DNA of 32,000 nt from the NCBI RefSeq assembly GCF_000219355.1, contig NC_015722.1:240001-272000 (forward strand), written 5' to 3'. The translations under genes and the position numbers were made by a program. The notes below the pieces were generated by a model that made no database searches, was not told the origin of the DNA, and saw nothing but the letters and a program-made list of their open reading frames with translations. Below are positions 25,754 to 30,736 of the stretch, piece by piece (position 1 is the stretch's first letter; every line of letters starts with the position of its first letter). The DNA comes from Candidatus Midichloria mitochondrii IricVA (GTDB lineage: Bacteria > Pseudomonadota > Alphaproteobacteria > Rickettsiales > Midichloriaceae).

Positions 25754-28366
25754 TTAATTACTATCAGGTTTTTCACATCTATTTTGAATATCATCACTCC
25801 AAACTTGCCTTAAAACATATATCTTATTTCCTACCGTATAGTAATCTGTTAGACACTGCCTTGTCGGCGTGAGAGGGGCATTTGTGTCATCAACAGGCGC
25901 TTTATAAGGAGCAGCACAACTACCGACTACTTGGCTTTGATCAGTTAAAGGACTACTGAGACTACTGGAATTAGGAACAGCAGCATTGTTATTAGCGGCT
26001 GCTTTATAATTATCAGTTGCCGACGGTAAAGTAACGTTACCATTTGCAGGAGATGCAGCAGTAATTGCAACACAACTGTCAGCTTTAACACAAGGATTTA
26101 CAACATTAGTTCCATATACGTTTGCAATACATTTTTTATTTGGCGTAAGAGGAGCGGTTCTTGATATGGTGACCCCATTTTTAGTTATGGAATCTGTAGC
26201 GACTACCATGCTATTAGCCATCGAGAATTCAGCTAGCTGAATATTTCTATTCTCTGCGCTCGCTTTTGCTTTTAATCTTGTTAACTCACTTTGGGCTTTG
26301 TTCAGCTCAGTTAAGGCAGTTATTTTGTTTGGGTCGTCGTCAGCTAGGGTTGATACATCATCGTTTAGTTTTATTTCTATATCTCGCCTATAATCAAAAC
26401 CAAATGTTATATCGCATTTTCCATTTTGATCGGCACCGTTTTTAATATCGCTATTTGGATCAGGCTTAAGCCATATTGCATAGCCGCTTCTTTCGGTTGG
26501 AATTTTCACCTCATCGCATGAAATAGGCATTTCCATACAATAAGGTTGAGACAGAGCTTCTAACCAGTCGCTCTCATTGGTTATACAAATTTTATCAGGA
26601 TGACTTGGATCCTTTAAGCTTCCATCACGATTTGTTAACGGACCTTCATAAGATCCAGGGCATGCTGCTCTTTCGGCCACTTCATTTTGTTTAGGAGCAG
26701 CTTTGTCTTTGTCCTTCCAAGGTGGAGAAGAAAACTCAGACCCAAAGCATTTAGATTGATAAGTGGGTAAGGTACACTGCTGCATTTGTTCAGCAACATC
26801 AGTGATAGAACTTGGACAACATTGGTCTCTGTACCTGTTACCAGCTGGTACATAATAAGAAGGGTATTCTCCTGAAATCTCTTGCGTTGTTGCAACACAC
26901 CCATCTATTTCCCAACGCATTTGCGGGGTTCTAACGCTAATCTTTTTAGGATTGCCCGAGGAATCCATTTCAGGAATTATAGTACTAAAATTGATTCCGT
27001 ATACAGAGCCACTGCCTCGTGTAATAATAGCCGATTGATTGCCGCTATCGTCTTGTACTACTTCTTTGGTGTATTCTTTTATTGTGACCGGGGGAGCAGG
27101 TAAAGGTAATTTCTTATATTGCAAGGGCATGGTTGCTGGGTTGTTTGTTTCATTTCCAGCTTTATCTTTTTTATAATACTTCTCATCGCTAACTTTTTTG
27201 TATACTTCGTCGTTATCCTTATCTATAATTATAGCATTACCACTACCGTCCGTATAGGATAAGAATAAATTAACAGCTGGTTGCTGACTTCCAAGTTGAT
27301 TTGCGAGCGTTGTATAGGACCCCATTATAGCGATATTAGATTCTTTCGGGGTTGGTCTTGGAAGGCACCCAATAAAAATATTATCTGGGCAGTCATCTTG
27401 CTCGCAAACACATACTTGAGAAGGATTTGAGTCGGCGACCTTAGCGCAATAAGTTATAGGATAAGTAGGAAATTTTGCACAAACTGGTGCCTCTGCATTT
27501 GCAACGTTTACAGTATCATATTTAGAAGTATCCCCAGGAAATCTATAGCGTAAAAATAATTGGCTAGGAGATAACTTTTGAGGATCATCAAATTTAACAA
27601 TTGCTACTGGCTGATCGAAGCGACTTCCGTTAGCTAACAATGTTTTTATATCAAGCTTTGGATCTACATAAGGTTCCGCATTTGCAGGCATAACCACATT
27701 GAAGGTTGGGGGAATAGGCTTAAATGGTTCGTCAACACATCCAATTAAGTTTTTTTTAGAGGTAAACAGAGAACCCAAAAAGTTAGTTTTAAAATACGCA
27801 CATATTTTGGTTCGTTTGCTAGTGTTTTTTAAGTTGCCTGGAAACAATTCCTGAGGCCGTATTTTTTTTAGTACTACTGTATTAAAGCTACCAAATAGTG
27901 AGAATTCATCATCAGACTTGAAGCTGCTATCCGCAATTTTAGTTTCTGTGTCTCCCCAGCACGTATAAGCTGGCGGATCCCAAGAGAAGCCGCAAGGAAT
28001 AAAAAGGCACCACTTAGAGATTTTTGGTGCACCACATCTTTGCTCGCCATCCAAAATCCATCTTGCCCAGCAATATTGTCTTTGCATTTGATATTGCGTC
28101 TCAAATGGGTCGGTATTAAGCCTTTCCAATTTCATCCTTTCTCCCCAAGTTGGAAAGAAGTCTCTGCATTGACCCTTCACTCCAGCGTCATCTTCACTTG
28201 TTTCCCTTGTTGCATCCCCTGATGGTGGGTCAGATTCAAAAGCGTTTTTTGAACCTACATATTTGCCGCTAAGCCAATCTTTACATAACAGATCTGTTTT
28301 AGCTTCTGTATAAGAGTTTATAAAAAAAATACAAAATAAAAATAATAAAGCACCCCTGTTTACCAT
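25754..28366 (-). CDS. 870-aa exported cysteine-rich protein of unknown family, translationally coupled to the VirB4-like gene
   Basis: It is a long intact ORF in a genome full of pseudogenes. The N-terminal signal peptide is MVNRGALLFLFCIFFINSYTEA|K. I see no further hydrophobic helices. There are about 31 Cys in the mature part by my count, often in short-spaced groups (CVCEQDDC, QCC, CMEMPISC, CVKADSC). A coiled-coil-like segment is LTELNKAQSELTRLKAKASAENRNIQLAEF. Its start overlaps the upstream stop as TAATG. Confidence 0.8.
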   Translation of the reverse strand: MVNRGALLFLFCIFFINSYTEAKTDLLCKDWLSGKYVGSKNAFESDPPSGDATRETSEDDAGVKGQCRDFFPTWGERMKLERLNTDPFETQYQMQRQYCWARWILDGEQRCGAPKISKWCLFIPCGFSWDPPAYTCWGDTETKIADSSFKSDDEFSLFGSFNTVVLKKIRPQELFPGNLKNTSKRTKICAYFKTNFLGSLFTSKKNLIGCVDEPFKPIPPTFNVVMPANAEPYVDPKLDIKTLLANGSRFDQPVAIVKFDDPQKLSPSQLFLRYRFPGDTSKYDTVNVANAEAPVCAKFPTYPITYCAKVADSNPSQVCVCEQDDCPDNIFIGCLPRPTPKESNIAIMGSYTTLANQLGSQQPAVNLFLSYTDGSGNAIIIDKDNDEVYKKVSDEKYYKKDKAGNETNNPATMPLQYKKLPLPAPPVTIKEYTKEVVQDDSGNQSAIITRGSGSVYGINFSTIIPEMDSSGNPKKISVRTPQMRWEIDGCVATTQEISGEYPSYYVPAGNRYRDQCCPSSITDVAEQMQQCTLPTYQSKCFGSEFSSPPWKDKDKAAPKQNEVAERAACPGSYEGPLTNRDGSLKDPSHPDKICITNESDWLEALSQPYCMEMPISCDEVKIPTERSGYAIWLKPDPNSDIKNGADQNGKCDITFGFDYRRDIEIKLNDDVSTLADDDPNKITALTELNKAQSELTRLKAKASAENRNIQLAEFSMANSMVVATDSITKNGVTISRTAPLTPNKKCIANVYGTNVVNPCVKADSCVAITAASPANGNVTLPSATDNYKAAANNNAAVPNSSSLSSPLTDQSQVVGSCAAPYKAPVDDTNAPLTPTRQCLTDYYTVGNKIYVLRQVWSDDIQNRCEKPDSN

Positions 28367-30612: not shown

Positions 30613-30736
30613 TTAAATATCTCCTTAATTGTTAACCCTTTATAAATAGATTATATTTAATAGAGAGTAGGTCAACCTGTTTTGTAGATTAATGCCTTTT
30701 CTTAAAGGTGATATAGTTCTATATGTCGTAGCTAGT

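Follow-up and report, generated by a model that had tools for sequence, protein, structure and literature searches.

A VirB4 paralogue with degenerate ATPase motifs and an exported, cysteine-rich protein of an undescribed family are encoded in one conserved two-gene operon of Candidatus Midichloria mitochondrii

A 32,000-nucleotide stretch of the Candidatus Midichloria mitochondrii IricVA genome (NC_015722.1, forward-strand positions 240,001 to 272,000; hereafter the window, in whose numbering coordinates are given) carries on its minus strand two intact open reading frames (ORFs), which a first-pass annotation had described as a translationally coupled pair joining a divergent VirB4-like protein to a cysteine-rich exported protein that could not be placed in any family. 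Both ORFs were present where that annotation had located them. The upstream gene (28366-30612) encodes 748 aa with 100% identity to a Ca. Midichloria mitochondrii VirB4 protein, and is named rvhB4-II here after the paralogue of the rvh type IV secretion system (T4SS) that it resembles. The downstream gene (25754-28366) encodes a protein of 870 aa that we call PX. At the junction, gtTAATGgta, the TAA stop codon of rvhB4-II and the ATG of PX have base 28366 in common, which is the single-nucleotide overlap that had been described. Within the 3′ end of rvhB4-II, 9 nt ahead of the ATG of PX, there is an internal Shine-Dalgarno sequence, GAGGA (28380-28376). Read from the sequence, the whole arrangement (28364-28380, with TAATG at 28368-28364) has the layout of classic translational coupling; PX translation is coupled to the termination of RvhB4-II, and both proteins are consequently made together in a fixed ratio.

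Upstream of the pair, the AAGGAG ribosome binding site noticed in the first pass was found at 30626-30621, 8 nt before the rvhB4-II ATG. Further 5′, TTGACC (30675-30670) and TATAAT (30655-30650) are separated by a 14-nt spacer and form a possible promoter (30650-30675, minus strand), with the TATAAT element ∼38 nt 5′ of the start codon. This motif was read from the sequence, since its spacer is below the sigma-70 optimum and the consensus scan consequently did not call it. That scan, for promoters and terminators across the region, performed no better than on shuffled sequence, and the transcription signals are unproven. Its sole terminator-like match in the region was a weak one, a hairpin followed by a T-run on the minus strand (25536-25548) about 200 nt past the PX stop codon, against a mean of 3.7 matches in shuffled sequence. 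The GC content of the two genes is 0.30 (rvhB4-II) and 0.39 (PX). The higher value of PX prompted us to consider a foreign origin, which was rejected in view of the similar GC content at third codon positions (0.26 versus 0.29); because of this similarity, the difference between the genes is attributed to amino-acid composition.

The product of the first gene is a full-length VirB4 paralogue. It matched PF03135 with 55.8 bits (gathering score 21), and its residues 11-742 aligned on positions 5-755 of the 792 positions of TIGR00929. The cutoffs for canonical VirB4 proteins were missed by a wide margin, with 279.6 bits against 643.1 for TIGR00929 and 241.2 bits against 1050 for NF010473. The nearest solved structure was TrwK of R388 (7o41; E 9.5e-29), of which residues 15-498 aligned with residues 13-492 of RvhB4-II only, that is, with its N-terminal half as far as Walker A. 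Comparison with aligned canonical VirB4 sequences showed that Walker A is degenerate, GPEESGKE (residues 445-452; 29257-29280) instead of GPSGSGKT, and that Walker B is lost, IIAVNSDF (residues 626-633; 28714-28737) instead of IIVIDEGW, its Asp having been replaced by Asn and its catalytic Glu being gone. Neither motif agrees with the pattern of an intact site, GxxxxGK[ST] for Walker A and hhhhDE for Walker B.

Rickettsiales, including Midichloriaceae, are known to carry two such proteins, RvhB4-I and RvhB4-II (PMC4676284, PMC11077975, PMC10732058, PMC13203960). RvhB4-II lacks the conserved ATPase active sites and is encoded at a locus 'well separated' from the remaining rvh islets; it is strictly conserved and thought to assemble into the rvh system (PMC4676284). 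By its normal length, its defective ATPase sites and its separate locus in a Rickettsiales genome, the first gene fits RvhB4-II. It is thus not the unexplained orphan that it had first been taken for (PMC4676284, PMC11077975, PMC13203960). The non-catalytic VirB4 half of the combination is already known and cannot be counted as new. Its gene has been described as an isolated or individual one (PMC4676284, PMC3518464, PMC13203960), and we found no mention of the PX family or of its coupling to RvhB4-II in the rvh and Midichloria literature, a search that left most subscription journals outside. The claim of novelty made for the pair thus stands for one part of it, as the PX family and the coupling of PX to RvhB4-II seem not to have been described before.

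PX begins with a predicted Sec-type signal peptide, MVNRGALLFLFCIFFINSYTEA (residues 1-22; 28301-28366), which was recognized by its n-h-c pattern and would be cleaved before Lys23. The hydrophobic stretch is too short for a transmembrane helix, and a hydrophobic N-terminus was found throughout the family alignment. Elsewhere in the protein no transmembrane segment was detected, as no 19-residue window reached a Kyte-Doolittle hydropathy of 1.6. PX contains 32 Cys, 31 of them after the signal peptide, in line with the signal peptide and about 31 Cys that had been proposed. Scans against Pfam and NCBIfam assigned PX to no family, the sole line being YdaS_toxin at E 0.1, which we regard as noise, and these scans detected no toxin or enzyme domain. 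A word-indexed search returned 17 homologues, 97-24% identical to PX and all annotated as 'hypothetical' or without a name; those with a named organism came from Midichloria, from metagenome-assembled genomes of Midichloriaceae and from the Acanthamoeba endosymbiont UWC8. When 1.84 billion representative sequences were searched with HMMER, 60 clusters were recovered (30 of them at E ≤1e-30), with lengths up to 1408 aa; overall, the identities of homologues to PX span 97% to 20%. A scan of species-representative genomes with an 8-member alignment gave four loci and added Candidatus Cyrtobacter zanobii and C. comes. Among the named hits there was no Rickettsia, Wolbachia, Anaplasma or other well-sequenced genus, and the clusters were tiny. 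A profile of 50 members added no further members from a word-indexed database of 5.8 billion proteins, an outcome of the word-index limit, and against all PDB sequences it matched only tensin C1 at E >1, which is noise. As far as its named members go, and at the sensitivity of HMMER, the family seems restricted to bacteria of Midichloriaceae type, the metagenomic members being without taxonomy. The family is, on this sequence evidence, undescribed, and the homologues at 97-20% identity, together with the dN/dS values of 0.18-0.23 reported below, indicate that the two ORFs of the pair are real genes and not chance ORFs.

Across 50 members of the family, 21 of the 32 Cys of PX are at least 94% conserved, in an alignment with a mean column identity of 13%; a pattern of this kind is the signature expected of structural disulfides formed in an oxidising compartment. 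Alignment and structural model place most of the invariant Cys in a beta-rich N-terminal core (residues 26-620; 26507-28291), which is kept even in the truncated UWC8 form and whose best-conserved block comprises residues 207-345. This block opens with the family signature LIGCVDEPFKPIPPTFN (residues 207-223; 27698-27748; pattern LIGCVDxPxxPxPPxFN), in which G209, C210 and P219 are invariant and P217 and N223 nearly so. The second half of the signature enters a segment (residues 219-228) with a predicted local distance difference test score (pLDDT) below 50 that is probably flexible, judging from the model.

The structure of PX was predicted with AlphaFold2 on an 18-sequence alignment, which gave a mostly beta model with a mean pLDDT of 81.3 and a predicted TM-score (pTM) of 0.56. 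Foldseek comparison of the full model with 350,542 PDB chains found nothing credible, no chain exceeding a TM-score of 0.13 or a probability of 0.21; that PX has no known fold is a statement about these solved structures and not about the AlphaFold DB. The PDB set includes Cag, Dot/Icm, F-type, R388, pKM101 and TraN structures, and no likeness of PX to a solved T4SS part was seen in it. Together with the empty Pfam and NCBIfam scans, this bears out the initial impression that the 870-aa protein cannot be placed in a family. A match to TEP1s (E 5e-4) was spurious, with a TM-score of 0.10 and a root-mean-square deviation of 43.7 Å. The other lines were beta-propeller enzymes (POP, DPP8/9, GH43, GH32 and neuraminidase) at probabilities of at most 0.2; a beta-propeller core found no support when residues 24-485 were modelled separately (pLDDT 79.8), as no hit at E <1e-3 or above a TM-score of 0.13 was obtained. 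The viral database BFVD, searched for poxvirus CCP proteins, gave nothing either.

Beyond the core, the model and the family alignment outline two C-terminal modules. The first, tentatively delimited from secondary structure in the model, is bounded by Cys and spans residues 610-759 (26090-26539); it is interrupted by a long helix (residues 679-705; 26252-26332), and a CCP-like profile gave weak but position-consistent matches at its equivalent in close relatives of PX. The terminal module (residues 765-864; 25775-26074) consists of C765, PANG, an insert of ∼25 aa, C817, C838, W856 and C864. No Sushi domain (PF00084) was found above the gathering score in PX of the window, and Sushi matches at E ≤0.05 were present in 3 of 50 family members. 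The long relative P0103, in contrast, has a Sushi module at 28.7 bits, above the Pfam gathering score of 20.7. A jackhmmer search started from this module reached the terminal modules of P0077 (2e-11), P0009 (6e-8) and P0006 (1.5e-4). P0009 residues 674-767 align with residues 753-847 of the window protein, whose best match to the module profile fell exactly at the P0009-equivalent place with a non-significant independent E-value of 1.6, and the weak Sushi match of P0092 maps onto residues 766-864. The terminal module of PX is thus tentatively CCP/Sushi-like, by transitive homology only and below threshold in the window protein itself. Four relatives (P0111, P0103, P0100 and P0092) are 1170-1410 aa long, with 52-61 Cys and 4-7 tandem C-terminal CCP/Sushi-like modules, a domain typical of eukaryotes and unusual in bacteria. 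At the other extreme, the UWC8 protein (L004:10001-11767) and P0010 are ∼590-620 aa long and keep the core, both C-terminal modules being missing; a 140-aa ORF with no family match follows the truncated gene at L004. The C-terminus of the family therefore varies from absent in these two, through 1-2 modules in most members, to 4-7 in some. The architecture is hence one of a conserved core with a variable distal region, as in many adhesins.

We then compared the surroundings of PX genes across 15 loci. In 11 of them (the window, L001, L002/L003, L004 from UWC8, L005 and L006 from Cyrtobacter, L010, L012, L013, L014 and L015) PX lies directly 3′ of a VirB4-like gene, and the flanking genes differ at each. 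In every linked relative the stop and start codons overlap or abut, as TAATG, TAAATG or ATGA, in agreement with the translational coupling first proposed from the window; a GAGG motif along with the tight stop/start is kept in L012, L001, L004, L002, L005, L010, L013, L014 and L015. At L010 the PX start, an ATGA that the gene caller had missed, brings back the signal peptide. The linked set includes P0113, whose similarity to window PX reaches only E 1.8e-6, and at the most divergent linked loci the VirB4 proteins are ∼30% identical and PX is barely alignable, the junction still being tight. All eight aligned PX-linked VirB4 proteins have the Walker B Asp replaced by Asn and the Glu lost, even where the GK[ST] of Walker A remains, and Walker A is often degenerate as well. 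No other rvh or vir gene was found beside the pair in the flanks of the 10 related loci.

The remaining 4 of the 15 loci (L007, L008, L011 and L016) carry PX paralogues that are unlinked to VirB4. At L008:3333-8682, tandem paralogues of 864 and 821 aa lie beside priA, and at L016 a multi-Sushi copy of 1191 aa comes after two GT2 glycosyltransferase genes and dnaN. In a neighbour-joining tree, which is a rough distance tree without support values, linked copies were found on both sides of the midpoint root, including the deepest branches, while the unlinked copies formed two discrete derived clades, one of them the multi-Sushi group. Because of this distribution, the simplest reading is that linkage of rvhB4-II and PX is ancestral and that PX later escaped from it twice by duplication. 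Both genes are under purifying selection according to their substitution patterns. Against the 97%-identical L012, the ratio of nonsynonymous to synonymous substitution rates (dN/dS, Nei-Gojobori) was 0.23 for rvhB4-II (23.5 synonymous and 23.5 nonsynonymous differences) and 0.18 for PX (41 and 29, respectively), and against L001 it was 0.15 and 0.08 with saturated dS. The selection that had been inferred for the pair and synteny in relatives were both observed, and throughout this work no hit to a known component, no lack of conservation and no neutral evolution was encountered.

Other arrangements around such gene pairs deserve mention. In two genomes that are only distantly related, genes of the rpsB-tsf-pyrH-frr cluster are found no more than a few kb from the pair, the complete set at L001:780-3855 and frr, pyrH and tsf at L013:13015-14817; this proximity may be a remnant of an ancestral location. 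A metagenomic locus, L009:166-5975, contains a TrbC/VirB2-family gene (166-522), a VirB4-like gene (662-3070) with Walker A GSGRT and Walker B LEECW, and an overlapping ORF of 980 aa (3033-5975) with a signal peptide and 21 Cys, in the gene order of canonical virB2-virB4-virB5. This ORF was rejected as a demonstrated PX homologue, as hmmsearch and phmmer found nothing and hhalign aligned 26 columns at 2% probability; this weak match, the only one between the two proteins, falls on a 'GC..P.GPPPPF' motif near residue 207 in each, where PX has its family signature. The ORF seems to be a positional counterpart of PX from a different lineage. P0031 is a VirB4-like protein of 717 aa whose Walker A is completely erased (GPSKDNNN) and for which no Pfam hit had been precomputed; its gene is followed by an overlapping ORF of 771 aa that likewise has no Pfam hit, and this locus may be another pair of a dead VirB4 and a large partner.

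With respect to the rest of the window, a scan of the ORFs of 100 aa or more revealed no further vir-type gene, as the first-pass annotation had reported for the 32 kb; smaller ORFs, the size class of VirB2, VirB3 and VirB7, were not scanned exhaustively. That annotation had also taken the survival of the pair among dead genes as a sign of selection. The two genes are indeed intact, but the description of their surroundings was overstated and the argument is weak, because most of the window is intact housekeeping DNA, with uvrC, pgsA, flhA, nth, lgt, two M23 peptidase genes, the isc cluster, rmuC, tpiA and metG all intact. Degradation is confined to fragments of a DDE_Tnp_1_3 insertion sequence (IS), to a split AAA-ATPase_like/PDDEXK_9 gene and to the 30.7-32 kb stretch. 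It does include the immediate flanks of the pair, namely IS fragments at 24.8-25.3 kb on one side and, on the other, the 30.7-32 kb stretch without an intact ORF. Two pieces of the one IS family lie at 19274-19675 and 24818-25261 on the plus strand. On the same strand an AAA-ATPase_like fragment (21305-21730) is parted from its usual partner domain PDDEXK_9 (22314-22793), which suggests a broken gene. Upstream of the operon there is a Thr/Pro-rich, low-complexity ORF of 108 aa (31000-31326, minus strand) with a long antisense ORF over it and no family match. The isc cluster (12100-15685, minus strand) comprises an IscS-like gene (12852-14060), IscU (12435-12830), IscA (12100-12432) and an ORF of 539 aa (14066-15685) in which Rrf2 (IscR-like) and class-V aminotransferase (IscS-like) domains share one frame; this ORF may be a regulator-enzyme fusion or an artefact of the choice of an upstream TTG start.

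Taken together, these results establish that rvhB4-II followed by PX is a conserved two-gene operon, which unites a dead VirB4 paralogue with an exported, disulfide-rich protein. As to its role, we consider it quite possible, if somewhat short of probable, that PX serves the rvh T4SS as an accessory part, in the envelope or at the surface, and depends on RvhB4-II. RvhB4-II would then be a scaffold without hydrolytic activity on the cytoplasmic side of the inner-membrane complex, where it would serve the incorporation of PX. PX itself would cross the inner membrane via Sec and acquire its many disulfides on folding in the periplasm; the N-terminal core (residues 26-620, with the signature) might attach to the machine at its periplasmic or outer part, and the variable C-terminal CCP-like modules might project outward and bind a host ligand. 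That VirB4 can act in this manner is suggested by work on Agrobacterium, in which Yuan et al. (2005, J Biol Chem 280:26349) are said to have found that VirB4 stabilises VirB3 and VirB8 and enables formation of a VirB2-VirB5 complex without NTPase activity. In canonical virB operons, virB5, which encodes an exported minor pilin or adhesin, comes right after virB4. The rvh system has been reported to be without a VirB5 equivalent (PMC11077975, PMC10732058). Since PX occupies the slot that virB5 has after virB4, and this system reportedly lacks VirB5, a VirB5-like role is the one favoured; the more specific proposal, that PX is a non-homologous tip or surface adhesin in the VirB5 position of the Midichloriaceae rvh T4SS and that its assembly is the dedicated job of RvhB4-II, we regard as rather doubtful. 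A parallel exists in Anaplasma, where virB4-2 is clustered with paralogous virB2 pilin genes and the existence of a variable surface organelle was put forward (PMC3556328).

Several observations weigh against an accessory role of PX in the T4SS. Gene adjacency is all that ties PX to the secretion system, and none of the PX-linked loci has a virB2 gene beside the pair. The two proteins are predicted to reside in different places, RvhB4-II in the cytoplasm and PX in the periplasm or outside the cell, so that an interaction between them must be indirect and pass through the machine. PX and VirB5 share neither sequence nor fold, VirB5 being alpha-helical and PX mostly beta, and PX matches no solved T4SS component in the PDB. 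The CCP assignment of the window protein falls below threshold. The unlinked paralogues at four loci indicate that PX-type proteins evidently work without co-translation with RvhB4-II. Finally, HMMER did not detect the family outside Midichloriaceae-type genomes, and a family so restricted can offer no explanation for the retention of RvhB4-II in Rickettsia or Anaplasmataceae.

Some of the same facts would be accommodated if PX worked in the envelope or outside the cell without the T4SS, say as an adhesin that binds the host or as a structural protein of the periplasm, and its position in the operon were a frozen accident or a matter of promoter sharing. This explanation, which we hold to be somewhat unlikely, agrees with the VirB4-unlinked paralogues, among which are a tandem pair and multi-Sushi forms, with the absence of a further rvh gene near the pair at any locus, and with the prediction from Rickettsia RNA-seq that rvhB4-II lies in operons with non-T4SS genes (PMC13203960). 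It is at odds with a tight junction that has outlasted divergence of VirB4 to ∼30% identity, of PX to the point of being barely alignable (E 1.8e-6) and the change of all flanks, as neutral adjacency rarely outlives so much rearrangement; moreover, the upstream partner of linked PX copies is always a dead VirB4 and no other gene. Another possibility is that PX is secreted by the machine, being exported via Sec, oxidatively folded in the periplasm and then moved across the outer membrane by the rvh T4SS, much as Ptl does with pertussis toxin, with RvhB4-II as a substrate-specific, non-hydrolysing adaptor. A signal peptide combined with many conserved disulfides, CCP/Sushi-like modules typical of extracellular, host-facing proteins, and a transcription unit that PX has in common with a T4SS gene, as ptx has with ptl, are what such a substrate would display. 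Effectors and toxins, however, are usually fast-evolving and mobile in the genome, whereas a core of ∼600 aa with invariant motifs and strict, deep synteny is what one would sooner expect of a machine part. Neither a toxin nor an enzyme domain was detected in PX, and for the rvh system, which includes a VirD4 coupling protein, secretion is believed to start in the cytoplasm (PMC11077975). On balance a two-step substrate seems distinctly improbable.

It is, in our estimation, very unlikely that RvhB4-II and PX form a stand-alone module freed from the T4SS, such as a regulator/chaperone pair in which the dead ATPase controls the production or export of PX. The pair does always lie apart from the other rvh islets. 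Yet RvhB4-II keeps the full VirB4 architecture, including an N-terminal domain that can be aligned with TrwK, and in the structure of the R388 T4SS it is the N-terminal domain of VirB4 that contacts other subunits of the machine. RvhB4-II is also conserved in Rickettsiales families that are without PX (PMC4676284, PMC11077975). A point that may speak for such a module comes from the non-intramitochondrial Midichloria of Ixodes holocyclus, which is reported to have lost most T4SS genes and kept an intact 'virB4_1' (PMC11650858), a copy that may be either paralogue. Pseudogenisation of the T4SS has also been reported for the non-intramitochondrial Midichloria of Hyalomma scupense (10.1101/2022.05.16.490919, PMC11650858).

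Conservation of RvhB4-II, RvhB8-II and RvhB9-II extends over pathogens and symbionts of the Rickettsiales, and the function of these apparently defective duplicates has been unexplained since their recognition in 2009-2015 (PMC4676284). A conserved, coupled partner provides a first genetic handle on the function of RvhB4-II and makes it testable. The pairing with PX suggests that RvhB4-II helps to produce or assemble an exported protein that faces the host, rather than energising the export of effectors, and it challenges, at least for Midichloriaceae, the statement that the rvh system has nothing in the VirB5 position. If the VirB5-position reading were true, RvhB4-II would be a scaffold specialised for the assembly of surface structures, working without hydrolysis, and its clients would be PX in Midichloriaceae, VirB2 paralogues in Anaplasmataceae and, in the lineage of L009, a different large exported protein. 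Invasion of mitochondria is unique to Midichloria, whose T4SS is among the candidates for what determines this ability (10.1101/2022.05.16.490919); for that reason, a T4SS-linked PX with CCP-like modules is a reasonable candidate for contact with the host or the organelle. PX may in addition be of structural interest, having a confidently predicted structure and no fold relative among solved structures. The evidence is purely genomic and the family is so far limited to unculturable Midichloriaceae-type bacteria, so that RvhB4-II of Rickettsia or Anaplasma is not thereby explained.

How PX relates to known systems can be judged from several comparisons. It is unlike VirB6/TrbL, which are polytopic inner-membrane proteins, as it has no transmembrane segment and no Pfam hit to them, and in this the first-pass annotation was right. 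The likeness to VirB5/TraC/TrwJ is one of position and not of homology: PX is Sec-exported and encoded directly after a virB4-type gene. VirB5-type proteins are thought to contact host or recipient surfaces and need VirB4 for their assembly. They are alpha-helical proteins of ∼220 aa, whereas PX has 870 aa, is mostly beta and contains 31 Cys in its mature form, and neither Pfam nor Foldseek against the PDB gave a match to VirB5 families. PX is at most a functional analogue of VirB5, not a homologue. TraN offers another likeness, being large and Cys-rich with a signal peptide and conserved disulfides, as PX is; it is the surface adhesin of a T4SS, its base being conserved and its tip variable. 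TraN belongs, however, to F-type and not to P-type systems, and traN is not adjacent to traC, the VirB4 homologue. PX gave no Pfam hit to TraN (PF06986) even at E up to 1 and no Foldseek match to it in the PDB, as had been anticipated when no TraN motif was recognized. With CCP/Sushi/SCR domains (PF00084) the terminal module has four Cys, a conserved Trp and a PxNG motif in common; it differs from them by the ∼25-aa insert between the first and second Cys, and the 600-aa N-terminal core of PX is unrelated. Pertussis toxin is likewise Sec-exported and disulfide-bonded and is encoded in one transcription unit with the Ptl T4SS genes, Ptl acting on a periplasmic substrate. It has no similarity to PX in sequence or fold, and the conservation and synteny of PX are those of a machine part rather than of a toxin.

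Other comparisons concern the Rickettsiales. With RvhB4-II (VirB4-2) of the rvh P-type T4SS, the first gene shares degenerate Walker A and B motifs, full length, a separate locus and Rickettsiales origin, as well as strong conservation combined with fast evolution (PMC4676284, PMC11077975). In the ATPase gene itself there is no essential difference from the published RvhB4-II; what those descriptions lack is the coupled exported partner. The cluster of virB2 paralogues and virB4-2 in Anaplasma and Ehrlichia resembles the Midichloria operon in that a dead VirB4 is tied to exported surface proteins of the T4SS and not to the channel genes (PMC3556328), but there the proteins are many small VirB2 pilins and in Midichloria a single large, non-pilin PX. 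The metagenomic L009 locus, whose large ORF has no detectable relation to PX, combines features of the two, with a VirB2-family gene as in Anaplasma and Ehrlichia and a large exported ORF as in the rvhB4-II/PX operon.

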